Shown here: in pieces, positions 39,971 through 59,812 of the stretch
Layout of the letters: every line of letters begins with the position of its first letter
How positions within the stretch are numbered: position 1 is the stretch's first letter
Program-made: the position numbers and the translations under genes
Assembly (NCBI RefSeq): GCF_003991155.1
Contig: NZ_CP031294.1
Source of the DNA: Escherichia coli
Lineage (GTDB): Bacteria; Pseudomonadota; Gammaproteobacteria; Enterobacterales; Enterobacteriaceae
Length of the DNA: 64,000 bases
Reading direction: 5' to 3' (one strand)
The notes under the pieces: model-generated
The model's input: only the letters and a program-made list of their open reading frames with translations
Database searches by the model: none
What the model was told of the DNA's origin: nothing

Positions 39971-40383
39971 TGTCTTTAACTCACTCCAACAACATAAAAA
40001 TAAGCGCCAAAATAACGCCATAAACGCGCTTTTATATCCTTACCAGTACATACCCATTACTTAACACATTAACGCGCTTAAAACGCGTTATATTGCGCTA
40101 TAGCGTATGGTTAATCATTGGCTTTTAGTCTTGCTATGTGATCCGCGTTTATTTGTCGGCGCGGATCGGCATTTTGTTTTGTTCCGTATCCGCTCGCGTA
40201 TTATGTGCGCGTGATTTTTCACATAATCACACCACTTAATCACGTATGTGATTATGCTACGAAAGAAATCTGGATGTCTCAGGCGACGAAAGTCATCATA
40301 ATTTTCCCCGCTCGCCTGTCCGACAACCGCTGGTTGGATTCCACCAGCTTCCCGATGTTTTTTTCTACATAAAGGCGAATGCA

Positions 40384-40460
40384 GCCGTTTCCCGAAAAAA
40401 TCCTGGCCGTTTCCCGTCGGCTCATGAATACGTTCCTCGCCGTTTCTGAAAATTTCCCTG
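40384..40460. repeat. three iteron-like repeats GCCGTTTC(C/T)(C/G)
   Basis: gccgtttcccgaaaaaa / gccgtttcccgtcgg / gccgtttctgaaaatttccctg read directly. Confidence 0.5.
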
Positions 40461-40509
40461 CGGCAGCTGGTGGCTATAGAGAAAGGGCCGTTTCTGGCCC
40501 TCTTCTCAG

Positions 40510-40992
40510 TTACACGCCATCAAGGATGTGGATGCGGTTGCTTGCGTATACATTCAGCATAAAGTTAGCGCAAAACAGTTTCCATGTATCAACGCCAGCG
40601 GTATACGTAATGTTTTTGCATTTAATCGCATTGTTGGCGATCCGCATCCCCTGCGATACTGCTTCATCGTCGGAAAATTTGAACGACGATTGAGTTTTAA
40701 TCCAGACAGAAATCTGCGTAGCGAACTCAATCAGCTTGGACTGGCAGAATCGCCCGGAGCGCACCGGAAAGACGAACGTTCCGAATCCAGAATTTACCAC
40801 ATATGCTTTCTCAAATACCCGCGAGTAACGACGATTGCCAATGATGTCGCGTGCAATAATGCATTTTTCTTGTGCTGACAGTTCTACCGTCTCATTGTCG
40901 CGCCATGCACCAAGTACTCGTTTTTCAATGTCAGAGAACGTTACAGCGATATTGCCATGTGCGGGTGCGTTTACAGTAGCGATAAAATTCAT
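40510..40992 (-). CDS. hypothetical protein
   Basis: 160 aa; conserved family-2 box immediately upstream of start. Confidence 0.55.
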   Translation of the reverse strand: MNFIATVNAPAHGNIAVTFSDIEKRVLGAWRDNETVELSAQEKCIIARDIIGNRRYSRVFEKAYVVNSGFGTFVFPVRSGRFCQSKLIEFATQISVWIKTQSSFKFSDDEAVSQGMRIANNAIKCKNITYTAGVDTWKLFCANFMLNVYASNRIHILDGV

Positions 40993-41009
40993 GATTAATT
41001 CCTTATCGT

Positions 41010-41045
41010 AAATAACAAATTGTTTTCTTGTTGGTGTTAATTATC
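41010..41045 (-). promoter_or_regulatory. family-2 promoter/operator-like box (AACA-N3-TGTT core + TCTTGTTGG extension)
   Basis: aaataacaaattgttttcttgttggtgttaattatc read directly; about 20 bp upstream of ATG 40992. Confidence 0.6.
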
Positions 41046-41167
41046 GTTGTACGAATAAGGCGTCAAAGTGGAAAGTTGCGGTAGCCGGACGGGAACAGGT
41101 GGGTTTGTCGGTTGCCTGGAGGTAAGAGGTTGGTGTTTTTAGCCTGCGGGAAACAGGATGGTCATTT

Positions 41168-41191
41168 AAGGCCACCAGCATTGGTGGCCTT
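41168..41191. terminator. GC-rich hairpin (aaggccaccagcattggtggcctt); near-identical hairpin at 41651-41674
   Basis: Inverted repeat read directly; the two copies share flanks gtcatttaag / ccttaat. Confidence 0.45.
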
Positions 41192-41196
41192 AATCT

Positions 41197-41478
41197 TTAG
41201 TGGAGCAGACCGATGTCGATGGTATCCCCTGAATCATCCACACGGATCATCAGCATGGCAAAGGCGTTTAGTGGATAGCTTGCGTGCCATTCAGGGAAGC
41301 GGTCATCTCGCATGAAGTCGGCAATGTCGTAAACGCATCCCTCAAAGTGGAAGAATCGCGTGCTTACCTGCTCGTCATAATCCACATGATCCATTTCTTG
41401 CTGTTCTGTTTCCGGCAAGTCCAGCCATGATTCAAGAAATACATTTTGTGCTTTAGGGGTAATGGTGAAATCAGTCAT
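41197..41478 (-). CDS. small acidic hypothetical protein
   Basis: Start set at ATG 41478 with GAGGA SD; family-2 box upstream. Confidence 0.5.
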   Translation of the reverse strand: MTDFTITPKAQNVFLESWLDLPETEQQEMDHVDYDEQVSTRFFHFEGCVYDIADFMRDDRFPEWHASYPLNAFAMLMIRVDDSGDTIDIGLLH

Positions 41479-41495
41479 GAGCATATCCTCACTGC

Positions 41496-41529
41496 GTAAA
41501 CATGTTGTTTTCTTGTTGGTGTAATTATC
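41496..41529 (-). promoter_or_regulatory. family-2 promoter/operator-like box
   Basis: gtaaacatgttgttttcttgttggtgtaattatc. Confidence 0.6.
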
Positions 41530-41813
41530 GCAGTGTAGATAAGGCATAAAAGAAGTTAATACAGGCTGAATACACAAGAAAGGTTCTGGAAGTTGATAGC
41601 CAGGTTTCAAACTAACCTTCGGTTATTAAAAGTCATTTAAGACCACCAATGCTGGTGGCCTTAATAATTATCGCCCGATTACGCTAAGGATCTTTTCCTC
41701 AACTGATTTGTTGTTGCGACTAAACTGCCTTGCGTATCTGATGACAGAAGAGGCGTTTTGCTTTCTGACCATCTCGGCTCTTTCCTTCAGGCGTTTCTTG
41801 AAATCGCCCATAT

Positions 41814-42188
41814 TTACCACCAGGCGCAGAAGGTCAGTCTGTTATTGTGAAAGTCGTGGTTCTTAATCAGATCTTCCACAAGCTCTTTCAACTCCCCCAC
41901 ATCATGCCAGTAACCTTCATCGTACTCCTGACTGCCGAAGAAAAAACCTTCCCGGGTAGGCAAGTACTCTTCGCAATTACTTTCGTTTATGTGCATCAAA
42001 TGAGCCTTCAGAAAACAAATGTCATTCATCGTTAATTCTAAAAGCTCACAATTTTCGACTTCACCTACGTTGCGCTCCATCCACCCAACGAGCGCATTGA
42101 ACTTACGGAAGTAAGCAACCTGCTTTCTGGATGCCTCGTTATTCAGATCGTTTTTAGGCTGTGTCTCGATATAGATATCAAGTCCCAT
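41814..42188 (-). CDS. hypothetical protein
   Basis: Start set at ATG 42188 (MGLDIYIE) with AAGGAAA SD. Confidence 0.45.
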   Translation of the reverse strand: MGLDIYIETQPKNDLNNEASRKQVAYFRKFNALVGWMERNVGEVENCELLELTMNDICFLKAHLMHINESNCEEYLPTREGFFFGSQEYDEGYWHDVGELKELVEDLIKNHDFHNNRLTFCAWW

Positions 42189-42242
42189 GATGGTTTCCTT
42201 ATTAAGTTGCTTCAGTGAAATCATTTTCACAAATCAGATAAG

Positions 42243-42266
42243 GCAGAAAACAAATTGTTATCGGGC
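42243..42266. promoter_or_regulatory. family-2 palindrome core (agaaaacaaattgtt), inverted orientation relative to the other copies
   Basis: Read directly. Confidence 0.5.
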
Positions 42267-42305
42267 ATAAGAAAATGGCGCGGTTTACGCGCCATTCAAA
42301 GAGGA

Positions 42306-42701
42306 TTAAGCGAATACGCTTTCAGGGATTAAGGTGTCAGCAGGAATGCCGGAGGTAATGCGCAGGCCGTACTGACCAATCCAGGTAGTGTTGGTATTCA
42401 GGCTGGAGGCGAATACGGTGTTAACCATATTCATCATGGTTTCAAACACCTCTTCATCAACCTGGCGGAAGTAGTTCTCGATTTTCAGCAGCAGCGGGTC
42501 AGTTGCATCGAAAATAGACTGGTATTGAGTCGCGTACTCGCCGCCGGAGGCATCACCTTTACGCACGATCGTACTGGCCTGGACTTCGGCACCAGTTTCG
42601 GTGTTGTACGTAACAACGGTGATTTTTGCCACATTCTTACCTTCGGCGGTTTCAGAGGCATAGTAAACATCAACTGTCAGTTTTTCGCGTTTAACGGTCA
42701 T
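42306..42701 (-). CDS. hypothetical protein
   Basis: Start set at ATG 42701 (MTVKREK) with GGAGAG SD; family-1 palindrome and terminator upstream. Confidence 0.5.
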   Translation of the reverse strand: MTVKREKLTVDVYYASETAEGKNVAKITVVTYNTETGAEVQASTIVRKGDASGGEYATQYQSIFDATDPLLLKIENYFRQVDEEVFETMMNMVNTVFASSLNTNTTWIGQYGLRITSGIPADTLIPESVFA

Positions 42702-42764
42702 TTCACTCTCCGTAGTGTTTTGGTTATTTTTATATTCTATGATCGTAAGTATGTACTTACAATA

Positions 42765-42792
42765 CAAAAAAGCCCCGTAAGGATGGCGGGGC
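42765..42792 (-). terminator. intrinsic terminator (agccccg-taaggatggc-ggggct with T-run on minus strand)
   Basis: Read directly; downstream of gene 42828..43139. Confidence 0.65.
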
Positions 42793-42827
42793 TGTCGTAC
42801 TGTCGACTAATTACCACTTGCACATTA

Positions 42828-43139
42828 TCAGGCTATTGCCATCACTGATGCTCTCTGAATCTCTTGCTGGGCCACGCGGTTAACTTCCATCAAAGCCAGT
42901 TCGAGCTGATGTTCCGGCCACATTCTTTGAAATGCCACCCAGCCTTTTCCACGCTGGCGACGAACATTCATTACATAACGAGTAAAGGTGTATTTATCGA
43001 AAGACACCGCTGTTTCACGGAACAGACGAATAGAGGTTCCATTGGCAACGATGTCCAGCAAAGTTAATTGAGCAACCAGCGCAGGCTTCTCTTTTCTCTT
43101 CTGGTCTTTGTCCAGACCAAGAACCAATGATTTTTTCAT
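42828..43139 (-). CDS. hypothetical protein
   Basis: Start set at ATG 43139 (MKKSLVLG); family-2 box upstream. Confidence 0.5.
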   Translation of the reverse strand: MKKSLVLGLDKDQKRKEKPALVAQLTLLDIVANGTSIRLFRETAVSFDKYTFTRYVMNVRRQRGKGWVAFQRMWPEHQLELALMEVNRVAQQEIQRASVMAIA

Positions 43140-43147
43140 CACAACTC

Positions 43148-43186
43148 CGTAAACAACTTGTTTTCTCAATGGCGTAAATAATACCA
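43148..43186 (-). promoter_or_regulatory. family-2 promoter/operator-like box
   Basis: ccgtaaacaacttgttttctcaatggcgtaaataatacc. Confidence 0.6.
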
Positions 43187-43292
43187 GTAAGAAAACGGCT
43201 ACAAAGCATATTGATCAGGTGCATGAGCGATATGCAGGTTCTTCCCTGCGGCTATAGAGAAATTAAGCCAGCATTGCTGGCTTTGGTTAGGT

Positions 43293-43622
43293 TTACTCGA
43301 ATACTTCAAGAAACTCCTGAACGTCCCAATGCTGGACAAGGTGAAGATAGACCTTAGAAATAACATCATTCTCGCTATCGCATGTGAAGTAGTACTTCTG
43401 GCTGCGGTTGTATGTGTCCACACAAAATTCGCTCATATCCATAAAGTCAGCATCTTCACCCATGTCGCAAATCATCAAAGCAGGTGCGTCATCACGAGTC
43501 ATCAGCTCAAGCACCCACCGCGAATTGATCAGAGTGGAAGACCAACCTTCTAACTCATAAAACTGATCAAACTCTTTTTGAGTTAATTTCTTGATTTGGT
43601 TGATGTCGATATTTGCAAACAT
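43293..43622 (-). CDS. small acidic hypothetical protein
   Basis: Start set at ATG 43622 (MFANIDIN) with AAGGA SD; family-2 box upstream. Confidence 0.5.
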   Translation of the reverse strand: MFANIDINQIKKLTQKEFDQFYELEGWSSTLINSRWVLELMTRDDAPALMICDMGEDADFMDMSEFCVDTYNRSQKYYFTCDSENDVISKVYLHLVQHWDVQEFLEVFE

Positions 43623-43630
43623 AAAGCAAT

Positions 43631-43666
43631 CCTTAAACAACATGTTTTCTTGATGGTGTTATTATC
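43631..43666 (-). promoter_or_regulatory. family-2 promoter/operator-like box
   Basis: ccttaaacaacatgttttcttgatggtgttattatc. Confidence 0.6.
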
Positions 43667-43792
43667 GCAATAACGCACAGGTGAAAAAGGATTTTATTCC
43701 GGTGAATGTGGTTTTGGCAGTGAGTTTTCAGGTTCAGTACCGAGTACACTTTTTACATTATTCTGATTTAGTGGCCGAAGGTGGCTGGTGGG

Positions 43793-44125
43793 CAGAATAA
43801 TCCTCTCCCCGAAAACCTACTGAAATCGATTGTGACCCGTTGGCTGTCTGGCACAATTACGCTGTAACTGGGCATTCAGAGGGAATCCAGCGGTAAGTAA
43901 GTTCGCCTGCACGTGAGCGCCTCTCTTCTTCCCGCACATTACAGGTGGGTAGCCGCAACTCTCCCTCTCGCTATACCGGTACGCCGCCGTTCCTGAACCG
44001 GCATCGAGCCTTCTCCCGAAATCCACACAGGCAACTCGACCGTTTCCCTGAAAACCTCCAGCCGTTCCCCGAAGGCAACCCAGCCGTTTCTGTAGCGGGA
44101 TGCAACCTTTTCCCTGTATGGACCG
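43793..44125. repeat. array of about 7 iteron-like repeats (C(C/T)GTTTCCC(T)GAA-type)
   Basis: ctccccgaaaacc, cttctcccgaaatcc, ccgtttccctgaaaacc, gccgttccccgaagg, gccgtttctgtagc, ccttttccctgtatgg, gccgttcctgaacc read directly. Confidence 0.5.
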
Positions 44126-44229
44126 AAGGCTGACCGTAGGGGTGTTACGGGGGATAAAATCAGGAGTTGAATAAATACGAAAAAGGAGGCGACACCCCTC
44201 CTTCTCTCCCCACTTATACATACCTGGCT

Positions 44230-44830
44230 TCTTCGCTATACATGTTGTGTTTTATTCGTGTTTTATCTGTCTCAACCTCTCTATGGACGTTAATACTCAC
44301 TCCTTCCAGAACGTTCTATACGGCGACTAATTCTGTTGGTGAATTGGGTGTGTTGTTCTCTCTGTCGGTGTATGTGGTTTCGTTCGTTTTGCGGTGGTTC
44401 TTCTATGGGGTGTTCTCGTCGTTTTGGTGATTGTTCTTCTCCGTGTATGGAGTAATGGCAGGTGGGCGATTCCTTTCGTTATTGTGTTTGAGTTGTTTGT
44501 CTGGAGTGCGTGAAGGGCTTTTGTAGTTATTCGTGTGTTGGGTAATGGCGTTTCCCGTGATTGTTCTGTTTCGTGTCTTTTGGGATTGAGAGAAACCTTG
44601 CGGTTACAGGCTTCGTTGGGGTTTCAGTGATTCTGGTGTTTCTTCGCTGTTTGGGTAATGGCGTGTCGTGGGTATCGCGCGTATGGAAGTTTCGAATTGC
44701 CTGTGAAAGTTAGGTTGGTTGTCCGGTAGCCTGAGAAGAAGAGGTGGGTCTTTTCGGTAGCCTGCCATAAAGAGGTTGGTTGTTTTTGGTAATGGCATAT
44801 GTGTTATTTAGTTGTTTTGTTATGCCTGAA
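44230..44830. repeat. strongly strand-skewed (G+T-rich on plus strand) non-coding tract with degenerate ~60-bp repeats (ggtaatggc..., cggtagcctg...)
   Basis: Base composition and repeated words read directly; ORFs in the tract are low-complexity and rejected. Confidence 0.5.
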
Positions 44831-45036
44831 AATAAGTTGTTTATATGGTTATGTAACGCAACGGGAACGATTTTGAGCGTGTGTTTTTGTTGGTAGTGTG
44901 TTGGGTCGTCTGTGGTGAAAATTGGACGCTGTGGCGCTGTCTGCTGCGTAGAATTACGGGTATAAGCAGTGATGTGTGAAAACGTCAATTTTTTAGACCA
45001 AATCGGGTGAAAGCGTTGATGTTTCGTTGATCTGTT

Positions 45037-45074
45037 ATTCAGTTGTTTTCTTATTGGTATAAACAACTGTAACC
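45037..45074. promoter_or_regulatory. family-2-related box with split arms (cagttgttt-N12-aaacaactg)
   Basis: Read directly. Confidence 0.45.
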
Positions 45075-45176
45075 TATTGATATTTAAGGATGTGATTCCA
45101 GGCATGGAAGGGGAGTAGTGGCGATCAACGGATTCTTATAGAAAAGAATCAAATTGTGACCGCCATTATCAATGTT

Positions 45177-45911
45177 TTACTTAGTTTTGTTTAGCAGAGA
45201 GAGAATTTCATCACTAATTTCACTCGCCTGTTTGATAGCCAATGCAGTTACCTCTTCTATGGTTGGTGACTGTTGATGCTCATATTTGGTTTCGGTTATG
45301 ACAATGTGTTCTTCACCAGAATTTGCGCATAGTGCCGCATTGACGATAAGGTTTGAGTAAGAATTTAGCAGAGCACTGTTGATGAACGCTTTCACGGTAT
45401 TACTGTCTGCACCAAATACATCTTTTCTGACCGCTTCAGCCTCACAGCGAACCCCTGCAGCAACATCGTGAAGAACATGTATGGCCTTGGAGCTTGTTTG
45501 TTCACAGTACTCAATCATTATTGTCGAATTGTTCTGTTCAACAAACGATCTGATGCCTGACGATTTACCCATAGCATCGAAGGCAGCGTGACCCGCACTA
45601 GTAGAGATATCTTCATAGAGTTCTTCATCGCTATCTTTTTCTTCAGGTGTCGAGGTGTCTTCATCGTCGTAATAGATATTGCCTTTAATCAGTGTCTTGG
45701 ACACTTGATATAAACAATAAGAAACGAGATTTAAGCATTGGATTTTAGCTGTATTGTCCTTTGTCGCCTCGCTATTCAGTTCTTTCGCTTCTTCAGTAAG
45801 GCTGTTGATAAGACTTTGTATTTTTTCCAACGCGTTAGGTGCACACTCCGCGTTGTCCATAAAGAATTTATAACCAGTCCCAGGGATTTCTAAACTTTTC
45901 AACTTTTTCAT
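45177..45911 (-). CDS. hypothetical protein
   Basis: 244 aa ORF. Confidence 0.5.
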   Translation of the reverse strand: MKKLKSLEIPGTGYKFFMDNAECAPNALEKIQSLINSLTEEAKELNSEATKDNTAKIQCLNLVSYCLYQVSKTLIKGNIYYDDEDTSTPEEKDSDEELYEDISTSAGHAAFDAMGKSSGIRSFVEQNNSTIMIEYCEQTSSKAIHVLHDVAAGVRCEAEAVRKDVFGADSNTVKAFINSALLNSYSNLIVNAALCANSGEEHIVITETKYEHQQSPTIEEVTALAIKQASEISDEILSLLNKTK

Positions 45912-45956
45912 TTCTTTGATAATCCTAAAAACAAACTACCAATGCTTTAATATCTG

Positions 45957-46256
45957 TTACCAGTTCCAGCACTCAAGCCCTTCAACGACCGGCGCACCAC
46001 AATCAAAATGTACAGAGTCAAAGCCTACATCAAGTACTTTCTGAATGTTAGCAATCGCGCCTTCGGATATACCATATCGACGCAAGTCCTCTTTCCAGAC
46101 ATCATCCTGTAACCCAGCGTGGACAATACAACCGCCGTCAATTTGTGAAACCCAATCCAGCTCATTGCTTGCGATCATGAATCGGCGAGCATCTTCCTCT
46201 GATGTATGAGATGAGCTGATCAATGCCACCTGGTAGGCTTGGGTAATGTTCAACAT
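45957..46256 (-). CDS. hypothetical protein
   Basis: 99 aa; two family-2 boxes upstream. Confidence 0.5.
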   Translation of the reverse strand: MLNITQAYQVALISSSHTSEEDARRFMIASNELDWVSQIDGGCIVHAGLQDDVWKEDLRRYGISEGAIANIQKVLDVGFDSVHFDCGAPVVEGLECWNW

Positions 46257-46266
46257 TTCAACAACT

Positions 46267-46340
46267 CCGAAACAATTTGTTTTCTTATGTGGCTTATTAT
46301 CTCAATCAACAAAAGGTAGAAAACAAATTGTTTTAGGGTT
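46267..46340. promoter_or_regulatory. two facing family-2 boxes (46267-46301 and 46315-46340)
   Basis: ccgaaacaatttgttttcttatgtggcttattatc and ggtagaaaacaaattgttttagggtt. Confidence 0.55.
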
Positions 46341-46417
46341 TGTTAAAGTCAGAAGGGGTTGTGTCTATATGAAAATGCCCAGCGTGTTGCCGGGCATTGC
46401 GAACAGAGGTTGTTTAA

Positions 46418-48451
46418 TTACTTAACCTGGTGGCCTGGTTTAGCACCAGCATCCGGGCTTAACAGGAAGATATCTTTCCCGCCGGGGCCAGCAGCCATCA
46501 CCATGCCTTCGGAGATACCGAAGCGCATTTTACGCGGAGCCAGGTTAGCCACCATAATGGTGTGACGACCAATCAGTGCCTGTGGGTCTGGATAAGCAGA
46601 ACGGATGCCTGAGAAGACATTACGCTTTTCACCACCGAGATCCAGTGTCAGACGCAGCAGTTTGTCAGAACCTTCGACAAACTCCGCGTTTTCAATCAGC
46701 GCCACACGCAGGTCAACTTTGGCGAAGTCGTCAAAGGTGATGGTTTCCTGAATCGGGTCGTCAGCCAGTGGGCCAGTTACCGGTGCAGCTGTGGCTTTCA
46801 CTTCTTCTTTGGATGCTTCCACCAGTGCTTCCACCTGTTTCATATCGATACGGTTATACAATGCCTTGAACGGATTCACTTTATGGCCCAGCAGCGGTTG
46901 CTGGATACCATCCCAGGTCAGTTCTGTATTCAGGAATGCTTCTGCACGTTCAGTCAGTTTCGGCAGTACCGGTTTCAAGTACGTCATCAGCACGCGGAAC
47001 AGGTTAATGCCCATAGAGCAAATCGCCTGCAGATCGGCATCGCGTCCTTCCTGCTTCGCCACCACCCACGGAGCCTGTTCATCGACATATCGGTTAGCCA
47101 GGTCAGCCAATGCCATGATTTCACGGATAGCTTTACCAAATTCGCGGCTTTCCCATGCTTCGCCAATCACTTCAGCGGCATCAGTAAAGGTTTTGTACAG
47201 TTGCGGGTCAGCCAGTTCGCTTGCCAGCACGCCGTCAAAACGCTTGTTGATAAAGCCTGCATTACGGGAGGCCAGGTTAACCACTTTGTTCACGATATCG
47301 GCATTCACGCGCTGAACGAAATCCTCCAGGTTGAGATCGATATCATCAATGCGCGAAGAGAGTTTCGCAGTGTAGTAGTAACGCAGGCTGTCGGCGTCAA
47401 AATGATTCAGCCAGGTGCTGGCTTTAATAAAGGTGCCGCGAGACTTGGACATCTTCGCGCCGTTCACCGTCACATAGCCGTGAACAAACAGGTTGGTCGG
47501 CTTGCGGAAGTTGCTGCCTTCCAGCATGGCAGGCCAGAACAGGCTGTGGAAGTAAACAATATCTTTACCGATGAAGTGGTACAGCTCGGCTGTGGAGTCT
47601 TTCTTCCAGTATTCATCGAAGCTGGTGGTATCGCCGCGCTTGTCGCACAGATTCTTGAAGGAACCCATGTAGCCAATCGGCGCGTCCAGCCAGACGTAGA
47701 AATATTTGCCCGGCGCGTTCGGAATTTCAAAACCGAAGTAAGGCGCATCGCGGGAGATATCCCACTGTTGCAGGCCGGATTCAAACCACTCCTGCATTTT
47801 GTTCGCCACCTGCTCCTGCAACGCACCGCTGCGGGTCCATGCCTGCAACATTTCGCTGAAAGAGGGCAGATCAAAGAAGAAGTGTTCGGAATCACGCATT
47901 ACCGGGGTAGCGCCAGAAACCACCGATTTCGGCTCGATCAATTCAGTCGGGCTATATGTTGCGCCGCAGACTTCACAGTTATCGCCGTATTGATCTGGCG
48001 CTTTACATTTCGGGCAGGTGCCTTTCACAAAACGATCCGGCAGGAACATGCCTTTTTCCGGGTCGTACAACTGAGAGATAGTGCGGTTTTTAATAAAACC
48101 GTTCTCTTTCAGGCGAGTATAGATAAGCTCAGACAGCTGGCGGTTCTCTTCGCTGTGCGTCGAGTGATAGTTGTCATAGCTGATGTTAAAGCCTGCGAAA
48201 TCAGTCTGGTGTTCCTGACTCATTTCGCCAATCATCTGCTCCGGTGTGATACCAAGCTGCTGTGCTTTCAGCATGATCGGCGTACCGTGGGCATCGTCGG
48301 CACAGATGAAATTAACCTCGTGGCCGCGCATTCGCTGGTAACGAACCCAGACATCAGCCTGGATGTGCTCCAGCATATGGCCGAGGTGGATTGAGCCGTT
48401 AGCGTACGGCAGCGCGCACGTCACCAGAATTTTCTTCGCGACTTGGGTCAT
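46418..48451 (-). CDS. metG: methionine--tRNA ligase
   Basis: Near-full-length match by recall to enterobacterial MetG: HIGH-type motif [16 protein letters not shown], zinc knuckle CPKC...C..C, C-terminal tRNA-binding domain; start set at MTQVAKK (ATG 48451), the ORF-track start is an upstream artefact. Confidence 0.95.
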
Positions 48452-48608
48452 AGTAGGCATTACTTCTTTGTAGTGAAAAGGGGCTTGATAGTAACAAAAT
48501 GGCCTTATGTCTGCCATGTGATAACAGCATTTCTCATAAATGATTAAATGTCGTAGCTGGAGTACACTACAAGGCGACAATTGCGCAAATTAAAATAAAG
48601 GAGACGGG

Positions 48609-49709
48609 ATGAGCGAGTCCAAATCGCCGGATGCCCTGAGAGCAATGGTAGCCGGTACGCTGGCTAATTTTCAGCACCCAACCCTGAAACACAACCTGAC
48701 TACGCTTAAAGCGTTACACCATGTTGCGTTGATGGATGACACACTGCATGTCGAACTAATCATGCCTTTCGTGTGGAATAAGCCTTTTGAAGACCTGAAA
48801 GAGCAATGTAGTGGTGATCTGCTCCGTATCACTGGCGCAAAGGCTATTGACTGGAAGCTGTCGTACAACATTGCCACGCTTAAGCGCGTCAAAAACCAAC
48901 CAGGCATTAATGGCGTTAAGAACATTATCGCCGTCAGCTCAGGCAAGGGCGGCGTGGGTAAATCCTCCACGGCGGTAAACCTGGCACTGGCGTTGGCTGC
49001 TGAAGGTGCGAAAGTTGGTATTTTGGATGCCGATATCTATGGTCCATCAATTCCAACCATGCTGGGCGCGGAAAACCAACGTCCAACCTCACCTGACGGT
49101 ACTCACATGGCACCTATCATGTCTCATGGCCTGGCAACCAACTCTATTGGTTATCTGGTCACCGACGACAATGCAATGGTGTGGCGTGGACCGATGGCCA
49201 GCAAGGCGCTGATGCAGATGTTGCAGGAAACTCTATGGCCTGATCTGGACTATCTCGTTCTCGATATGCCGCCGGGCACTGGTGATATTCAGTTGACGCT
49301 GGCGCAGAACATTCCTGTAACTGGTGCGGTTGTGGTAACTACGCCGCAAGACATCGCGCTGATCGATGCGAAGAAAGGCATTGTGATGTTCGAAAAAGTC
49401 GAAGTGCCGGTACTGGGTATCGTCGAAAACATGAGTGTGCATATTTGCAGTAACTGCGGTCATCACGAGCCAATTTTTGGCACCGGTGGCGCACAGAAAC
49501 TGGCCGAGAAATACAACACGCAGTTGTTAGGCCAAATGCCACTTCATATCTCTCTTCGTGAAGATCTGGATAACGGAACACCAACCGTTATTAGTCGTCC
49601 AGATAGCGAATTTACGGCTATTTATCGTGACCTCGCAGATCGCGTTGCCGCCCAAATGTATTGGCAAGGTGAAGTAATACCTGGCGAAATCGCATTCCGC
49701 GCAGTGTGA
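48609..49709 (+). CDS. mrp: Fe-S cluster carrier ATPase Mrp/ApbC
   Basis: Walker A SGKGGVGKS, CxxC motif (CSNCGHH), conserved divergent arrangement with metG as in enterobacterial chromosomes. Confidence 0.93.
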   Translation: MSESKSPDALRAMVAGTLANFQHPTLKHNLTTLKALHHVALMDDTLHVELIMPFVWNKPFEDLKEQCSGDLLRITGAKAIDWKLSYNIATLKRVKNQPGINGVKNIIAVSSGKGGVGKSSTAVNLALALAAEGAKVGILDADIYGPSIPTMLGAENQRPTSPDGTHMAPIMSHGLATNSIGYLVTDDNAMVWRGPMASKALMQMLQETLWPDLDYLVLDMPPGTGDIQLTLAQNIPVTGAVVVTTPQDIALIDAKKGIVMFEKVEVPVLGIVENMSVHICSNCGHHEPIFGTGGAQKLAEKYNTQLLGQMPLHISLREDLDNGTPTVISRPDSEFTAIYRDLADRVAAQMYWQGEVIPGEIAFRAV

Positions 49710-49714
49710 TAAAA

Positions 49715-49734
49715 GGCGGTGCATTGCACCGCCT
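49715..49734. terminator. hairpin between convergent mrp and umuD'-like genes (ggcggtgca-ttgcaccgcc)
   Basis: Inverted repeat read directly. Confidence 0.55.
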
Positions 49735-49745
49735 AATCAGTTCTC

Positions 49746-50135
49746 CTACATCACGGGACAATCATCAAACTCGCCACTTCTTGCGTCGTTGATAATGTGA
49801 GTGATCACACCAAACACGGCATTGCTGCCCGTGCATCCATCGTCATCCTTTGGCAATGCTTCCTTCTTACCGGTTCTTAAATCCTCCAGATGCTGACGTG
49901 GGTACTTCCGGTATCTTTTTACGCGATATTCCCCATCCAGAGCGCATACAAGCAGAGAACCATCAACCGGGGTAAGTGAGGAATCGACCACCAGCAATGC
50001 ACCCTGTAATATTCCCTCACGATGATGACTATCAGCTGCCCTCATGAAGTAGGTCGCTGAAGGATGTCTAATTATCTGCTGATCAAGAGAAATACGGCTC
50101 TCAGCATAATCCGCCGCAGGAGAAGGGAAGCCCAT
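49746..50135 (-). CDS. UmuD'-like (pre-cleaved UmuD / HumD-type) S24 peptidase-fold protein
   Basis: Begins M-GFPSPAADY, i.e. at the position of the UmuD self-cleavage product; lacks the N-terminal arm; divergent C-terminal tail. Confidence 0.7.
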   Translation of the reverse strand: MGFPSPAADYAESRISLDQQIIRHPSATYFMRAADSHHREGILQGALLVVDSSLTPVDGSLLVCALDGEYRVKRYRKYPRQHLEDLRTGKKEALPKDDDGCTGSNAVFGVITHIINDARSGEFDDCPVM

Positions 50136-50233
50136 AGCGTTTTCACCTCAGAGTACTGTTTATCCATACAGTATACATTAAAGATGCTTGAAGTGTGCAA
50201 TAGCGCGATGCTTTGCGCTCGTCTGGTGGCGCG

Positions 50234-50485
50234 TTATTTTTTGGCTATATCTTCTTTCTGATATACCGGATCGTTTCCTTTTGGCAGCAGGAGGCTTAAC
50301 TGCCGGTAGTGCCGTAGCCGTTCCATGAAATAGGTGCGCAGGTTCTCAGGTTGCTCACGGGCTACCTGTTCCGCTATGACGGGTATGTTCAATCGCTCTT
50401 TGTAGGCAACCCCCCTGGCAGCCAGGTCAACGTTAACTTTATTCCTTTCTTCCTGGCTTTTGGCTGCTATGTTCCAGTTGCTCAT
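50234..50485 (-). CDS. hypothetical protein
   Basis: 83 aa ORF. Confidence 0.4.
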
Positions 50486-50747: not shown

Positions 50748-50769
50748 ATTAGGTCATTCGTTACCTAAT
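50748..50769. promoter_or_regulatory. inverted repeat attaggt-N8-acctaat upstream of hsdM (candidate operator)
   Basis: Read directly. Confidence 0.3.
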
Positions 50770-50837
50770 GTCCGAACTGCTAAAGCATCCAAGTTGCTGT
50801 AGAATCACATCCAATTACTTAAACCTGAAATAAGTGG

Positions 50838-52396
50838 ATGAAAATGACAAGTATTCAACAACGTGCAGAGCTTCATCGCCAGATCTGGCAAATTGCTAAC
50901 GATGTCAGGGGTTCAGTCGATGGATGGGATTTTAAGCAGTACGTTTTGGGCGCGCTTTTTTACCGTTTTATCAGCGAAAATTTTTCCAGTTATATTGAAG
51001 CCGGTGATGACAGTATCTGTTATGCGAAACTGGATGACAGCGTAATTACTGATGACATTAAAGACGATGCCATCAAAACTAAAGGCTACTTCATCTACCC
51101 CAGTCAGCTTTTCTGCAACGTAGCTGCGAAAGCAAATACTAATGACAGACTGAATGCAGATTTAAACAGCATCTTCGTTGCTATCGAAAGTTCTGCTTAC
51201 GGTTATCCTTCAGAAGCTGACATCAAAGGTTTGTTTGCTGATTTCGATACCACCAGTAACCGCCTGGGTAACACCGTTAAAGATAAAAATGCCCGCTTGG
51301 CTGCGGTTCTGAAAGGGGTTGAAGGGCTAAAACTTGGTGACTTCCATGAACATCAGATTGACCTGTTCGGTGACGCCTATGAGTTCCTGATTTCTAACTA
51401 TGCGGCGAATGCCGGTAAGTCCGGCGGCGAGTTCTTTACACCGCAGCACGTCTCTAAGCTGATTGCACAACTGGCTATGCACGGGCAGACCCACGTTAAC
51501 AAAATCTACGACCCGGCAGCAGGCTCCGGTTCGCTGTTGTTGCAGGCGAAAAAACAGTTTGATGACCATATCATCGAAGAAGGTTTTTTTGGTCAGGAAA
51601 TCAACCATACGACCTATAACCTGGCGCGTATGAACATGTTTTTGCACAACATCAACTACGACAAGTTTGATATCAAGCTGGGTAATACACTGACTGAGCC
51701 GCACTTCAGAGATGAAAAACCGTTTGATGCCATCGTTTCTAACCCGCCGTATTCGGTGAAATGGATTGGCAGCGATGACCCGACGCTGATTAACGATGAA
51801 CGTTTTGCCCCGGCTGGCGTTCTGGCCCCCAAATCCAAAGCTGACTTTGCGTTTGTATTACATGCGCTGAACTATCTTTCGGCCAAAGGTCGCGCTGCGA
51901 TTGTCTGCTTCCCAGGCATTTTTTACCGTGGCGGCGCGGAGCAGAAAATCCGTCAGTATCTGGTCGACAATAACTATGTCGAAACCGTGATTTCACTGGC
52001 ACCGAATCTGTTCTTTGGCACCACTATTGCCGTCAATATTCTGGTGCTGTCTAAACATAAAACGGATACCAAAGTTCAGTTTATTGATGCCAGCGAACTG
52101 TTCAAAAAAGAGACTAACAACAACATTCTGACCGATGCTCATATCGAACAGATTATGCAGGTATTTGCCAGCAAGGAAGATGTTGCTCATCTGGCGAAAT
52201 CTGTTGCGTTTGAGACTGTTGTCGCGAATGACTATAACCTGTCGGTGAGCAGCTATGTGGAAGCGAAAGATACTCGCGAAATTATCGATATCGCTGAGCT
52301 GAATGCTGAGCTGAAAACCACGGTCAGCAAAATCGACCAGTTGCGTAAAGATATTGATGCGATTGTTGCTGAGATTGAAGGTAGCGAGGTACAGGC

Positions 52397-52400
<4 letters not shown>
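50838..52400 (+). CDS. hsdM: Type I restriction-modification N6-adenine DNA methyltransferase subunit
   Basis: NPPY motif ([10 protein letters not shown]), AdoMet-binding motif, 520 aa; operon with hsdS and hsdR. Confidence 0.93.
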
Positions 52401-53656
<1,256 letters not shown>

Positions 53657-53777
53657 TTGACCATTGCTACCGACCGGATCACCTTAACATCCGGTCTATA
53701 TAGAGACTATTTTTTACACGCCGGAAGTCGCCCTTAAAGCCCTTCCGGCCCTTGCCAGACGGCACAAAGGATGCGCT

Positions 53778-56700
53778 ATGACTCATCAGACACACACCAT
53801 TGCTGAATCCAATAACTTTATCGTTCTTGATAAGTACATCAAAGCCGAGCAAACAGGCGACAGCTACCAGAGCGAATCGGACCTGGAACGTGAACTGATT
53901 CAGGATCTGCGGAATCAGGGCTATGAATTTATTTCCGTAAAATCTCAGTCGGCGATGCTGGCCAACGTTCGGGAACAGCTTCAGAGCCTCAATGGTGTGA
54001 TGTTTAATGACAGCGAGTGGCGGCGCTTCACGGAGCAGTATCTGGACAACCCCAGCGATGGTATTCTGGATAAAACCCGTAAAATCCATATCGACTATAT
54101 CTGCGACTTTATTTTTGACGACGGGCGACTTGAGAACATCTATTTGATAGATAAAAAGAATCTCATGCGCAATAAGGTGCAGATTATCCAGCAGTTTGAA
54201 CAGACGGGTTCTCATGCTAACCGTTATGACGTCACGATCCTGGTTAATGGTTTACCGCTGGTGCAAATCGAACTAAAAAAACGCGGGGTGGCGATTCGTG
54301 AGGCTTTCAACCAGATACATCGTTACAGTAAAGAGAGTTTTAACAGCGAAAATTCCCTGTTTAAGTATCTGCAACTGTTTGTCATTTCTAACGGCACCGA
54401 TACCCGTTATTTTGCCAACACGACAAAGCGCGATAAAAACAGTTTTGACTTCACCATGAATTGGGCGAAATCAGACAACACGCTGATTAAAGACCTCAAA
54501 GACTTTACCGCTACCTTTTTCCAGAAACATACTCTGCTGAATGTTCTGGTGAACTACAGCGTTTTTGACAGTAGTCAGACGCTACTGGTGATGCGACCGT
54601 ACCAGATTGCCGCCACCGAGCGCATTCTGTGGAAAATTAAGAGTTCCTTTACAGCGAAGAACTGGTCAAAACCGGAAAGCGGTGGGTATATCTGGCATAC
54701 TACCGGTTCTGGTAAAACCCTCACCAGCTTTAAAGCCGCGCGTCTGGCAACAGAGCTGGACTTTATTGATAAAGTCTTCTTTGTGGTCGACAGGAAAGAC
54801 CTCGATTACCAGACCATGAAGGAATATCAGCGTTTTTCGCCAGACAGCGTCAACGGCTCGGAAAATACCGCAGGCCTTAAACGAAATCTGGATAAGGACG
54901 ATAACAAAATTATCGTCACTACTATTCAGAAACTCAATAACCTGATGAAAGCAGAAAGCGACCTGCCTGTATATAATCAGCAAGTGGTGTTTATATTTGA
55001 TGAATGCCACCGCAGCCAGTTTGGAGAAGCGCAGAAAAACCTGAAGAAGAAATTCAAACGCTATTATCAGTTTGGTTTTACCGGCACCCCTATTTTCCCG
55101 GAAAACGCTTTAGGCTCAGAAACGACCGCCAGCGTATTTGGTCGTGAATTGCATTCGTATGTAATTACCGATGCGATTCGTGATGAAAAAGTGCTCAAAT
55201 TCAAGGTGGACTACAACGATGTGCGGCCACAGTTTAAATCTTTAGAGACAGAAACCGACGAGAAAAAACTGAGTGCGGCTGAAAATCAGCAGGCATTTCT
55301 TCATCCCATGCGTATACAGGAAATTACGCAATATATTCTGAATAACTTCCGCCAGAAGACCCACCGTACTTTCCCAGGTTCCAAAGGCTTTAATGCCATG
55401 CTGGCAGTGAGTAGCGTGGATGCCGCGAAAGCCTATTACGCGACGTTTAAACGGTTACAAGAGGAAGCAGCTAATAAATCGGCTACCTATAAACCGCTGC
55501 GTGTTGCAACAATCTTCTCCTTTGCCGCCAATGAAGAACAAAATGCCATTGGTGAAATTTCCGATGAAACTTTTGATACCAGCGCAATGGACAGCAGTGC
55601 TAAAGAGTTTCTTGACGCTGCAATTCGTGAGTATAACAGCTATTTTAAAACTAACTTCAGCACCGACAGTAACGGTTTTCAGAACTACTATCGTGATTTA
55701 GCCCAACGGGTTAAAAATCAGGATATCGATCTGTTAATTGTCGTTGGGATGTTTTTAACCGGCTTCGACGCTCCAACATTGAACACGCTATTCGTCGATA
55801 AAAACTTGCGTTTTCACGGCCTGATGCAGGCATTCTCCCGTACCAACCGCATTTATGACGCTACTAAAACCTTCGGTAACATCGTCACTTTTCGGGATCT
55901 GGAACGCTCAACCATTGATGCCATAACGCTGTTTGGTGATAAAAATACTAAAAATGTGGTGTTAGAAAAGAGTTATGCTGAGTATATGGAAGGCTTTACA
56001 GATGCTGCCACTGGTGAAGCTAAACGCGGCTTTATGGCAGTAGTTTCAGAACTGGAACAACGGTTCCCTGACCCTGCCAGTATTGAAAGTGAAAAACAGA
56101 AGAAAGACTTCGTAAAACTGTTTGGTGAATACCTGCGTGCCGAGAACATCCTGCAAAACTATGATGAATTTGCCACGCTGAAAGCCCTGCAACAAATCGA
56201 TCTTAGCGATCCTGTTGCGGTAGAAAAATTCAAAGCAGAACATTATGTGGATGATGAAAAGTTCGCTGAATTGCAAACAATTCGTCTCCCTGCTGAACGC
56301 AAGATTCAGGATTATCGTTCTGCCTATAACGATATTCGCGACTGGCAGCGCCGTGAGAAAGAAGCTGAGAAAAAAGAGAAATCAACCACTGACTGGGATG
56401 ACGTAGTTTTTGAGGTCGATTTGCTGAAGTCTCAGGAAATAAACCTGGATTATATCCTTGGACTGATTTTCGAACACAACAGACAAAATAAAGGCAAGGG
56501 CGAAATGATCGAAGAGGTCAAACGCTTAATTCGTTCAAGCCTGGGGAACCGGGCGAAAGAGGGCCTGGTGGTCGATTTTATTCAGCAAACGAACCTGGAT
56601 GATTTACCAGACAAAGCCAGTATCATTGAGGCATTCTTTACGTTTGCTCAACGCGAACAGCAACGTGAAGCAGAAGCATTGATAAAAGAAGAAAATCTCA

Positions 56701-56894
56701 ATGAAGAGGCGGCGAAACGCTATATTCGCACGTCTTTAAAACGCGAATACGCCACCGAAAATGGCACAGAATTAAACGAGACATTACCAAAACTTAGTCC
56801 GTTAAACCCGCAATATAAAACGAAAAAACAGACCGTTTTCCAGAAAATCGTCACGTTTATTGAAAAGTTCAAAGGAGTAGGTGGGCAGATATAG
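53778..56894 (+). CDS. hsdR: Type I restriction enzyme endonuclease/translocase subunit (EcoR124I HsdR-like)
   Basis: 1038 aa; SF2 helicase motifs (TGSGKT, DECHR), N-terminal nuclease domain; sequence recalled as very close to EcoR124I HsdR. Confidence 0.93.
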
Positions 56895-56952
56895 TGTATT
56901 AATCTGAACCAGATCTGGCAGACATCTGTGCAAATTGCAGATAGCTGTCAGA

Positions 56953-57363
56953 TCAAACCATCGTAGGGATGTTTGTATCCACTTTGAACTCAGGTACACC
57001 AACGAACTCTTTAACCTTCATCTGGTAGCCGGTTCTGTCAGTTTTGATGACTTCCTGTTTGCCCTCTATAAACTGCTCACGCCACTCGTCGCGACGGGAA
57101 GCTGGCATGATCAGCAAAACGTTAGTCATATCCGTGACCTTCCTCCAGTACTCGGCCCAAATATTCTGTTTCACCCATTCCAGATCGACTTTATCCAGCC
57201 AAGCTCGATTCAAACGTGAGCGTTCTTCATCTGGTCGATGGTTTAGTCTCAGCAGGCGATTAATCATGTTGTGGCGTTCGTCGCCATAAACGAAGTCGTG
57301 TACCTGATACATGAAGGCGATCTCTTTCTCGCACTCGGCCACGATTTCGTGGATGACATTCAT
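56953..57363 (-). CDS. hypothetical protein
   Basis: 136 aa ORF; heptamer repeat directly upstream of start. Confidence 0.45.
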   Translation of the reverse strand: MNVIHEIVAECEKEIAFMYQVHDFVYGDERHNMINRLLRLNHRPDEERSRLNRAWLDKVDLEWVKQNIWAEYWRKVTDMTNVLLIMPASRRDEWREQFIEGKQEVIKTDRTGYQMKVKEFVGVPEFKVDTNIPTMV

Positions 57364-57370
57364 TTCCTGC

Positions 57371-57398
57371 CGATAGTCGATAGTCGATAGTCGATAGC
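57371..57398. repeat. heptanucleotide tandem repeat (CGATAGT)x4, 8 bp upstream of the 57363 start codon
   Basis: Read directly. Confidence 0.85.
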
Positions 57399-57443
57399 AG
57401 CGTTTGAGTTGGGATCGTCGATGATGGAAAGGGCTGTATTCAT

Positions 57444-57484
57444 AATAGCACCATTAAGAAGTGATTTGTTTAATGGTGCTATTA
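57444..57484. terminator. 14-bp-stem hairpin (aatagcaccattaa...ttaatggtgctatt)
   Basis: Read directly; downstream of gene 57547..58218. Confidence 0.5.
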
Positions 57485-57546
57485 TTTCAAAAATGAAAAG
57501 GTACTAAATAGAAATAAACAGGCAATCCTTCAAATAAAGGCATTGG

Positions 57547-58218
57547 CTAATCATACTTGGAGGTATTTATCACCAGAATTTTGTTTGTATAAATCTTCTT
57601 AATATCCCATGTGACATTACCGGAATACCATTGACCGTTATATACTTGGTTTCCAGTTGCACCTGTCATTGTTACATAGACAGGTCTGTCGTAATCGGTT
57701 CGTCTATAGTTATATACTCCAACCATAGCAGGCATTACCGCACATGGATACCCCATATCTATTGTAAATTGAGGGTCAGAAATAGTGATAAGTTTCGCAT
57801 CAAGGGGCATCATCTCACCGTGATACACCATTGCGCCTGCGCTGTTATACATGGCAATGCCATAGCCAGAATGTGGTAACACCATATCAGAAAAAGCATA
57901 AACTGTTATTGTTCCGGGGCTACCATTTACCTGATGCAATCTGAGAGCATTGTATCCGTTACTATGTTCATGAATAAACATCATGTTCGCCTTATTACTG
58001 CTTTTTATGAAAAAAAAACATGATTTGTTTGATGGGATTGATGTTTGAAAAACAGAACCTTTAGATGTAGACATTGTCCCTTTATTAATCAGATTTTGCG
58101 GAGTAAATTCAGGACTCATCCACAAACTTCCATCTGATTGAGTAATTGACATCCCGAACATAATTATCCCCAGTATGTGTATATGTAAGAACCAAGCCCC
58201 GTATATAAATTTGACCAA
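57547..58218 (-). CDS. hypothetical protein (AT-rich; contains T9 homopolymer on coding strand)
   Basis: 223 aa ORF; overlaps upstream ORF by 55 nt in another frame. Confidence 0.4.
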   Translation of the reverse strand: MVKFIYGAWFLHIHILGIIMFGMSITQSDGSLWMSPEFTPQNLINKGTMSTSKGSVFQTSIPSNKSCFFFIKSSNKANMMFIHEHSNGYNALRLHQVNGSPGTITVYAFSDMVLPHSGYGIAMYNSAGAMVYHGEMMPLDAKLITISDPQFTIDMGYPCAVMPAMVGVYNYRRTDYDRPVYVTMTGATGNQVYNGQWYSGNVTWDIKKIYTNKILVINTSKYD

Positions 58219-58445
58219 CTAACCGTATTTCCATTAATAGTAACATTTGGAACAGGTAAATTGATGTAGTTGTCGTTGTTAAGAGGCATTAATGACCACA
58301 CGGCATGTAGTGATTTACCCGGTGGCGGATTAGAGTACGTCTTAGAGCCTGATGACGCCGTAAATCGATCAAGAAAAAAAATAGGTGTAAGGAAGCCAGT
58401 AACGTTAATTCCTTTATTGTTGTAAATCCCTGTACCGTATGCCAT
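58164..58445 (-). CDS. hypothetical protein (possibly N-terminal part of a frameshifted gene with 57547..58218)
   Basis: 93 aa ORF, AT-rich. Confidence 0.3.
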   Translation of the reverse strand: MAYGTGIYNNKGINVTGFLTPIFFLDRFTASSGSKTYSNPPPGKSLHAVWSLMPLNNDNYINLPVPNVTINGNTVSWSNLYTGLGSYIYTYWG

Positions 58446-58499
58446 TTTTCACCCTTGTTTTTATCAACACAATATGGCCGATCATGCGGCCATATCAGA

Positions 58500-59069
58500 T
58501 CAATTAGAGCTTTGAAAGACTTTGTGTGGTTGTGTTGCGAGGTTATGTCGATGGCTTAACTCACGCATCATGTCTTCAAGGCGACTCTTTGTGTCGTCGA
58601 GTTGGTCGGCCATTGCTCCCAAAAGCTGACGAACGGCCATAGGATCATCGCTGTTTAGTGATGGCATTTTATAACCCGCCTGAGAAGACATAAGATTGAA
58701 CGCAGACATCAACATCGTTAGAGAGGATTTAAGCCCAGCAATTTCACGATCTTTGCTGGCAATAATCGTCTCACTCTTGTTAGTGTCATCAGTTCGTTGA
58801 GTCTCGCTCACCATATCCAAAGTCGCCTGCAACTTATCAGCGCGCTCTTTTTCAGCAAGATAATGAACACCGAAATGATGTGCTAAAGCTACAACCTGAG
58901 TTGGCTCTTCAAAGGTGGACTCAAAATTAAGTGCTGTAACCACTCTCTCAAATATGGAAACGTCTTCTATTCCTCGAAGAATGGCTAACATTTTGACCAG
59001 TTCATTAGCATCCATTTCTTCGAATAAGGCGTTTTGTTCATCAGCTATCGCTTTGCATTTCTTGCACAT
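58500..59069 (-). CDS. hypothetical protein
   Basis: 189 aa; family-2 box upstream. Confidence 0.5.
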   Translation of the reverse strand: MCKKCKAIADEQNALFEEMDANELVKMLAILRGIEDVSIFERVVTALNFESTFEEPTQVVALAHHFGVHYLAEKERADKLQATLDMVSETQRTDDTNKSETIIASKDREIAGLKSSLTMLMSAFNLMSSQAGYKMPSLNSDDPMAVRQLLGAMADQLDDTKSRLEDMMRELSHRHNLATQPHKVFQSSN

Positions 59070-59084
59070 GTGTTTTTCCTAATT

Positions 59085-59792: not shown

Positions 59793-59812
59793 GTGTTTTC
59801 CTTTTGTTATTT

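Follow-up and report, generated by a model that had tools for sequence, protein, structure and literature searches.

Escherichia phage Cyrano is the plasmid pLF82 of strain LF82, an Escherichia coli of the adherent-invasive type (AIEC), an SSU5-like phage-plasmid (P-P) that forms virions and is present at about 5.5 copies per cell (PMC9928086). In Shigella sonnei, expression of a P-P-borne metG gene gives rise to an antimicrobial-surviving sub-population, and the P-P copies of metG are described as 'multi- and highly variable', according to the available part of PMC12452169, which cites Tam et al. [quoted passage not shown] We describe here a metG gene, encoding methionyl-tRNA synthetase (MetRS), together with the divergent apbC gene (also named mrp), in a 64,000-nucleotide stretch of E. 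coli DNA (NZ_CP031294.1), the whole of which is called the window below. The favoured explanation, to which we give a probability of about 0.85, is that metG-apbC is a self-contained cargo module, captured from the chromosome, which sits in the variable early/accessory region of an SSU5-supergroup P-P and raises the dosage of MetRS and ApbC.

Judged by its sequence, the window is a stretch of an extrachromosomal, circular SSU5-supergroup P-P of E. coli, about 110 kb in size. It was assigned to this group because of its identity to a closed plasmid, its RepA- and ParB-like genes, its phage structural module and its identity to Cyrano and SSU5. Indeed, an 8-kb query around metG-apbC is 100% identical to the E. 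coli plasmid pEC17CM6_2 (NZ_CP190020.1, 110,667 bp, circular), whose positions minus 32000 give window positions. On this plasmid repA occupies plasmid positions 1-1056, two ParB-family genes are annotated at window 33851-35199, and a complete siphovirus module (terminase, portal, major capsid, tape measure, tail fibre) is annotated at window 5432-31198, so that SSU5-homologous structural and packaging genes share one replicon with plasmid replication and partition genes. The annotation also includes a RecA homologue, dnaE, a primase, a DnaB-like helicase, a ligase, nrdAB, thyA, a dihydrofolate reductase (DHFR) and four tRNA genes. Between 40 and 64 kb, the window is 98% identical to Cyrano over 72% of the length and about 80% identical to SSU5 at the DNA level. 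The relatives in PLSDB have the replicon type rep_cluster_488. Virion formation is reported for the relative Cyrano; PhiR41_1, a related phage record, was deposited with K-12 MG1655 as host. The window element comes from E. coli isolated from a chicken.

An earlier note, made from the letters of the window, had proposed either that one large, possibly phage-plasmid-like replicon had captured metG-mrp, or that two related elements had inserted on either side of a chromosomal pair; the first proposal stands, and the second does not. That two related prophages integrated independently around the chromosomal genes was suggested by the phage-like genes visible on both sides, and its probability is now close to nil: the window is colinear with the closed circular 110.7-kb plasmid, the repeated box described below and the SSU5 synteny run on across both sides, and the flank is never chromosomal in 5426 complete E. 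coli genomes, where the chromosomal locus lies beside yehE and yehF. In these genomes the left flank (1.2 kb, 45177-46400) was found in 225 of the 5426, at 229 plasmid places and at no chromosomal one, which, with the 110,667-bp circular record, fits an unintegrated replicon of about 100-115 kb. Neither flanks shared with reference chromosomes nor two prophages with their own att sites, the findings that the note had named as refuting, came to light. The same survey gave no chromosomal copy of the flank that would betray integration through metG homology. No integrase is annotated in the window, as the note had remarked (att repeats, hardly to be expected on an element borne by a plasmid, were not specifically searched for), and the single tyrosine recombinase of pEC17CM6_2 lies outside it; this absence is irrelevant because the element is an extrachromosomal plasmid.

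The metG-apbC block itself occupies 221 plasmid places and 5429 chromosomal ones in the same genomes. Among the matches listed, plasmid copies reach down to 97.7% identity and the next are chromosomal copies, at 90.2% or less. All but one of the 5426 genomes have a match, and at least 80% of the block is covered in 5422 of them; at the level of the survey as a whole, the extra P-P metG goes with an intact chromosomal copy. In PLSDB the block is present in 210 plasmids, full length in 201, almost all of them non-mobilizable Escherichia/Shigella plasmids and mostly of about 110 kb among the examples listed. Its junctions recur in four deposited phage genomes as well. As far as these sequence surveys go, the module is present in about 4% of complete E. 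coli genomes and is fixed on the element in essentially the whole Escherichia/Shigella-associated clade, and SSU5, the pHCM2-type and the Klebsiella relatives are without it. These counts also bear on the possibility that the junctions are a chimera of plasmid and chromosome reads. A metG that is 94% identical to the host copy could in principle mislead an assembler, but about 200 closed plasmids, each assembled independently, show the same junctions, as do the four phage genomes, and the apbC allele (82% identical to that of E. coli) is found nowhere on E. coli chromosomes, which leaves such an artefact a negligible probability.

The limits of the module were set by comparison with pHNAH968, a related E. 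coli P-P whose backbone homology spans 45957-46339 and 49746-50175 of the window; since it stops at 46339 and restarts at 49746, the module was taken as 46340-49745. In pHNAH968 the slot between the left backbone gene and humD holds three unrelated small plus-strand genes and lacks metG-apbC. The features within these limits are as follows.

46340..49745, no strand: the metG-apbC cargo module, 3.4 kb, between the end and the resumption of backbone homology with pHNAH968.
46374..46398, minus strand: hairpin followed by UUUUCAU, 3' of metG, terminator-like (-20.1 kcal/mol, z = -5.07).
46418..48451, minus strand: metG, intact gene for methionine-tRNA ligase (677 aa), composed as a mosaic from tracts of P-P type and of E. 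coli-chromosome type.
48452..48497, no strand: metG-proximal part of the spacer, near-identical to the E. coli and E. albertii chromosomes in alignment.
48498..48608, no strand: remaining spacer, diverging from E. coli and containing a 23-nt segment (48498-48520).
48609..49709, plus strand: apbC/mrp, iron-sulfur cluster carrier ATPase, 366 aa, intact; 94% amino acid and 82% nucleotide identity to K-12.
49714..49734, no strand: GC-rich hairpin between the apbC and humD stop codons, two-way terminator-like (-19.0 and -18.9 kcal/mol, z = -4.4 and -4.2); its minus strand shows a U-run.

The two genes diverge across a 157-bp spacer, arranged as in the K-12 chromosome, and both are intact, with family scores far above the cut-offs, so that the conserved divergent pair recognized in the earlier note is confirmed. 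Homology to the K-12 chromosome covers 46417-49705, from stop codon to stop codon, at 88.2% identity. The P-P backbone begins 78 bp past the metG stop and 36 bp past the apbC stop, which bears out the note's statement that phage-type sequence lies within about 100 bp of both 3' ends. The hairpin downstream of metG has no homology, in alignment, to the K-12 sequence downstream of metG. The spacer upstream of the 45 nt common to both differs from its chromosomal counterpart, and its 23-nt segment is present in Citrobacter and not in the Escherichia chromosomes compared. The start of metG was placed at the 677-aa position backed by RefSeq and by the K-12 alignment; a mechanical list of open reading frames runs on to a TTG (720 aa). 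A transposon or insertion sequence as the carrier was considered and rejected: no transposase is annotated near the module, the repeat analysis gave no repeat family bracketing 46340-49745, and the junctions are the ends of backbone homology.

The module is made up of two complete genes with a divergent promoter spacer of native style between them and a strong hairpin on either outside; it is set in the variable early/accessory region, flanked by a small backbone gene and by humD. We propose that it derives from an enterobacterial chromosome, as a copy cut back almost exactly to both stop codons. The likely effect in lysogens would be an extra, perhaps differently regulated, dosage of MetRS and ApbC rather than a new specificity, because the encoded MetRS is near-identical to the host enzyme. 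Indeed, it shares 669 of 677 residues with that of K-12 (98.8%), the eight substitutions being S112T, S151A, S275T, V276T, S319T, V442I, R538K and A554T. MetG reaches 1019.8 bits with NF001100, the NCBIfam equivalog model for MetRS (cut-off 587), its C-terminal tRNA-binding domain 163 bits with TIGR00399, and the motifs HLGH (residue 22), KMSKS (333), CPKC (146) and CEVC (159) are all intact. ApbC scores 759.3 bits against NF008669 (cut-off 348), with GKGGVGKS and CSNC in the translation; it is 366 aa long on the element and 369 aa in the 12 chromosomal copies whose full coding sequence (CDS) was recovered. Among six P-P copies, metG shows 0-8.5 nonsynonymous and 28-131.5 synonymous differences, with a ratio of nonsynonymous to synonymous rates (dN/dS) of at most 0.018, and apbC 0-1 and 2-41, with a dN/dS of at most 0.009. 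The low ratios indicate that both genes are under strong purifying selection while on the element. A MetRS family is present in PHROGs (phrog_8598).

That the near-identical MetRS might instead be a resistance determinant against a MetRS inhibitor, comparable to the plasmid-borne mupA/ileS2 for mupirocin, deserves mention since mobile aminoacyl-tRNA synthetase genes conferring inhibitor resistance are an established category, and NCBIfam lists MupA and MupB as exception models, which here gave only weak matches. We regard this as very unlikely: the eight substitutions out of 677 positions are conservative, and metG has been overwritten with host sequence (see below), while target-site resistance would lead one to expect an allele that remains distinct. 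Another proposal is addiction, in which the element supplies an essential gene, the host copy decays and the plasmid becomes indispensable. It draws on the fact that metG is essential across the Enterobacteriaceae (PMC11481867), but with 5429 chromosomal places, a match in all but one of the genomes and no sign of chromosomal loss in carriers, it appears even less probable.

The two genes of the module differ in ancestry. The apbC gene is about equally distant, at the nucleotide level, from K-12 (82.4%), the E. albertii chromosome (82.1%) and Citrobacter werkmanii (82.6%), with a synonymous distance (dS) of about 1.5 from all three; the identity between K-12 and E. albertii, by comparison, is 89%. 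For metG the corresponding identities are 93.8%, 93.2% and 87.3%, with a dS of 0.24-0.36 from K-12. In neighbour-joining (NJ) trees, the P-P copies of apbC form a long-branched clade (100% bootstrap) that falls outside the pair of E. coli and E. albertii, and those of metG group with K-12 within this pair. The switch in ancestry is near 48497, at about 45 nt upstream of where metG starts, so that most of the intergenic region goes with apbC. Among the P-P copies metG is more variable (94.1-98.6% identity) than apbC (96.9-99.8%), the opposite of the chromosomal rates.

The variability of metG is organized in tracts. In the P-P copy hosted by E. albertii, 25 of 27 informative sites are K-12-like within CDS positions 372-861, against 11 of 97 outside, and the Max-chi2 value of 67.7 was reached in 0 of 300 permutations; over six triplets the observed value was reached in 0-1 of 300 permutations for four, and in 4 and 53 of 300 for the two others. 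With its best-matching records of chromosomal metG this 490-nt tract shares 99.4% identity, and with the window allele 92.4%; 894 records match it at 99% or better, all of them chromosomes among the matches listed. The window allele has a K-12-like tract of its own at CDS 837-1249 (97.8% identical), and the last ~90 nt of metG carry a P-P-specific haplotype in all six copies. From this pattern we infer that the capture is old and that patches of metG have since been replaced by host sequence through homologous recombination with the host gene. The gene would have been re-patched repeatedly because it is similar enough to the host copy, and the divergent apbC spared because it is too divergent to recombine; the outer ends of the module have no flanking homology. 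An old capture would also agree with an apbC lineage that branches outside the E. coli/E. albertii pair and with a module fixed in the element clade. The RecA homologue of pEC17CM6_2 may bear on metG recombination; with the four tRNA genes and the DHFR, it belongs to the genes outside the window, at plasmid positions 4284-5357, 21251-21808 and 97735-98211.

A broader scenario would have an ancient capture, with an apbC lineage older than the split of E. coli and E. albertii, both genes under selection, metG continually re-synchronised with the host allele by gene conversion, and the P-P acting as a vehicle that samples metG alleles and possibly redistributes them between Escherichia lineages. 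The E. coli-type metG tract in the P-P hosted by E. albertii fits such a redistribution; we offer the scenario tentatively, at somewhat less than even odds. The scan of genome contigs with MetG returned no close donor of apbC among the matches listed, the chromosomes of E. fergusonii, E. marmotae and E. ruysiae not having been sampled. A Citrobacter donor, first suggested by the raw identities and the common 23-nt segment, was dropped when the NJ tree placed apbC as sister to Escherichia (94% bootstrap), and the segment is probably ancestral. Two apparent captures by other phages were likewise set aside: in the record named 'Acinetobacter phage MD-2021a' (CAKLQF020000011.1) metG-mrp stands in an ordinary chromosomal context, and that of 'Pseudomonas phage Y5' (OQ572407.1) is unverified and unannotated.

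Several points weigh against the cargo-and-dosage explanation as set out above. The metG changes associated with high persistence, S264F, G263S, ΔETIT 569-572 and a frameshift at 626 (PMC11004401), are all absent from the window allele in alignment, and the mechanism by which an extra, near-wild-type copy of metG would bring about tolerance is not obvious. The survival phenotype and its mechanism are known second-hand, through a citing paper, and the link to the S. sonnei element of the literature is made only through the protein accessions of the S. sonnei plasmid p38. A scan of the spacer for sigma-70 consensus promoters gave no site at 9/12 or better; because of this, expression of the P-P metG and apbC is deduced from their conservation and selection only. 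Finally, the deep branch of apbC could be due in part to faster evolution on the element, and not to an older or foreign donor.

The module might also serve mainly lytic growth, the extra MetRS aiding translation initiation and elongation during virion production and any benefit to the lysogen being incidental. The element does carry tRNA-Ser, -Thr, -Tyr and -Asn genes, NrdAB, ThyA and a DHFR, PHROGs already holds a MetRS family, and both genes are under purifying selection. Nevertheless, SSU5, the pHCM2-type and Klebsiella relatives and pHNAH968 all manage without the module, its genes have chromosomal-style divergent promoters and hairpin insulation and are not embedded in a phage operon, and the phenotype reported is that of a lysogen. 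A mainly lytic function thus seems rather unlikely, although the two roles are not mutually exclusive. The four tRNA genes of pEC17CM6_2 do not include one for Met; Rfam and tRNA scans of the window found nothing, and therefore there is no tRNA-Met partner in the window. The DHFR of pEC17CM6_2 is named trimethoprim-resistant DfrA51 by RefSeq.

The neighbourhood of the module agrees with the description in the earlier note, with the box and a small phage gene on the left of metG, and a UmuD'-like gene followed by hsdMSR on the right of mrp.

45957..46256, minus strand: small backbone gene left of the module, matching phrog_5003; DUF5983 family in the annotation of some relatives.
46271..46332, no strand: the repeated box, present twice (at 46271-46291 and at 46312-46332; core AACAA-n-TTGTT), a short way upstream of the 45957-46256 gene's ribosome-binding site.
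49746..50135, minus strand: humD, pre-cleaved UmuD'-like, S24 family (NF051876, 219.8 bits, cut-off 120); the backbone resumes here.
50234..50485, minus strand: DNA polymerase III theta-like gene, from annotation and family matches.
50844..56882, plus strand: type I restriction-modification genes hsdM-hsdS-hsdR, variable cargo, replaced by other genes in Cyrano.
2314, 41014, 41499, 42239 (minus), 43152, 43636, 45037, 46271, 46312 (minus) and 59089, mostly plus strand: copies of AACAAnTTGTTTTCTTnnTGG, from a motif count in the window.

The repeated box AACAAnTTGTTTTCTTnnTGG, with its palindromic core AACAA-n-TTGTT, is present in 10 copies where 0.17 would be expected by chance. The majority of those on the plus strand precede minus-strand early genes, about 15-22 nt upstream of their start codons. 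The box is conserved in SSU5; the stretch 46271..46332 is 87% identical to an SSU5 intergenic region. The box is probably a common operator or promoter element of accessory and early genes. The note had the two flanks sharing motifs, which is true of the window as a whole, with 10 copies, but not of the immediate surroundings, as the nearest right-hand copy is at 59089, 9 kb away and not beside apbC.

The slot to the right of apbC is a hotspot for cargo. In the window it is filled by the theta-like gene and hsdMSR, in Cyrano and PhiR41_1 by Ea22/Eaa-like genes, and in an E. albertii plasmid by deacetylase and GNAT genes. In the S. sonnei plasmid p38 (NZ_CP099775.1, locus L008, 12152-14545) an ISEcp1-blaCTX-M-15 unit lies in the hotspot, a few kb to the right of metG-apbC-humD. 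The E. marmotae plasmid NZ_CP146383.1 (locus L007, 9669-11141) has der directly to the right of apbC; der encodes a ribosome-biogenesis GTPase and is another essential housekeeping gene captured there. The hsdMSR region (50752-56895) is 96-97% identical to a module in phages vB_EcoM-673R5 and phi456 (89-95 kb). As hsdMSR is common to these phages and replaced in Cyrano, defence cargo appears to move between different phage and phage-plasmid lineages. Within hsdS, a 12-nt tandem repeat, CTTACCGCTGAG, occurs 3.3 times at 52949-52988 and encodes 13 residues in the middle part of HsdS. Among type IC enzymes of the EcoR124 family, the number of copies of a TAEL repeat determines how long the spacer in the recognition site is; by analogy, the hsdS repeat may be a specificity-switching repeat.

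Four further regions of the window drew attention. About 1.5 kb at 43650-45170 carries no RefSeq annotation and shares roughly 67-80% DNA identity with SSU5 and Klebsiella pJN2-26. Its DNA is better conserved than the translations of its open reading frames, and in the part checked (44230-44700) each of the six frames contains stops, for which reasons it looks non-coding. The plus strand of 44200-44800 is 40% T and 29% G, with GGGTAATGGCG-like repeat units near 44451, 44541, 44654 and 44789 and CGGTAGCCTG at 44727 and 44757; the region may represent an origin, may be a centromere-like site or may give a long non-coding RNA. The rnhA gene (RNase HI, 60705-61365) is annotated as frameshifted; it is intact in Cyrano, SSU5 and pJN2-26, and frameshifted in pHNAH968 too. 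Two stretches stand out by their base composition. Positions 1-1000, in the 3' part of a gene for a 'P-loop NTPase fold protein', have a GC content of 0.29 and may be foreign cargo. Positions 8001-9000, inside a 3.7-kb phage tail protein gene, have a GC content of 0.59 and an AT skew of -0.33.

P-P-borne metG is already known: MetRS figures in the annotation of Cyrano and of hundreds of RefSeq plasmids, has its own PHROG and has been the subject of a dedicated study. What is added here is modest, namely the discordant ancestry of metG and apbC and the gene conversion with host chromosomes. A temperate phage living as a multicopy plasmid with a second essential tRNA synthetase offers a route for antibiotic survival traits that involves no classical resistance gene, and the published S. 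sonnei work matters for surveillance because such traits can spread via these P-Ps. The window extends the known module to a P-P of a chicken E. coli isolate, where it stands beside a type I restriction system. That the metG half exchanges with chromosomes and the apbC half does not is useful for allele typing, and where metG copy number or variants serve as an epidemiological marker.

Compared with described systems, the window is closest to the P-Ps of Escherichia and Shigella. The metG-bearing P-P of S. sonnei (pWPMR2; Tam et al. 2024, cited by both PMC12452169 and bioRxiv 10.1101/2025.09.12.675607) is likewise an Escherichia/Shigella SSU5-supergroup P-P with an additional metG. The S. sonnei plasmid p38 encodes MetG (WP_001755492.1), ApbC (WP_000004356.1) and also HumD under the same accessions as the window. 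The window element differs from pWPMR2 in coming from a chicken E. coli and in having hsdMSR and a theta-like gene in the neighbouring slot. Cyrano (OV696614) is 98% identical to the window over 40000-50183 and 56956-64000 and has the same metG-apbC-humD order, the pair being annotated there as 'Methionyl-tRNA synthetase MetRS' and 'MinD'; between humD and the backbone, however, the place of the theta-like gene and hsdMSR is taken in Cyrano by Ea22/Eaa-like genes together with a DUF4942 methylase. SSU5, pHCM2 and the Klebsiella SSU5-like P-Ps share the backbone synteny, with 67-85% DNA identity in the flanking early region, a likeness that extends to the repeated box and the unannotated non-coding stretch, but they lack metG-apbC and have other small genes in the variable region.

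The chromosomal metG-mrp locus of the Enterobacteriaceae resembles the module in its divergent arrangement, gene lengths and catalytic motifs, and in the amino acid identity of MetG (98.8%) and ApbC (94%) to their K-12 counterparts. Unlike that locus, the module is trimmed to the stop codons, has other flanks, encodes an ApbC that is 3 aa shorter at the N-terminus, and has a spacer of 157 bp, against about 131 bp in K-12, with the 23-nt segment that Escherichia chromosomes lack. Finally, the module is reminiscent of phage morons and auxiliary metabolic genes, being an autonomous, swappable cassette with its own promoter region and terminators between backbone genes; it differs from these in that its cargo is an essential housekeeping aminoacyl-tRNA synthetase, which duplicates a host gene and recombines with the host copy.

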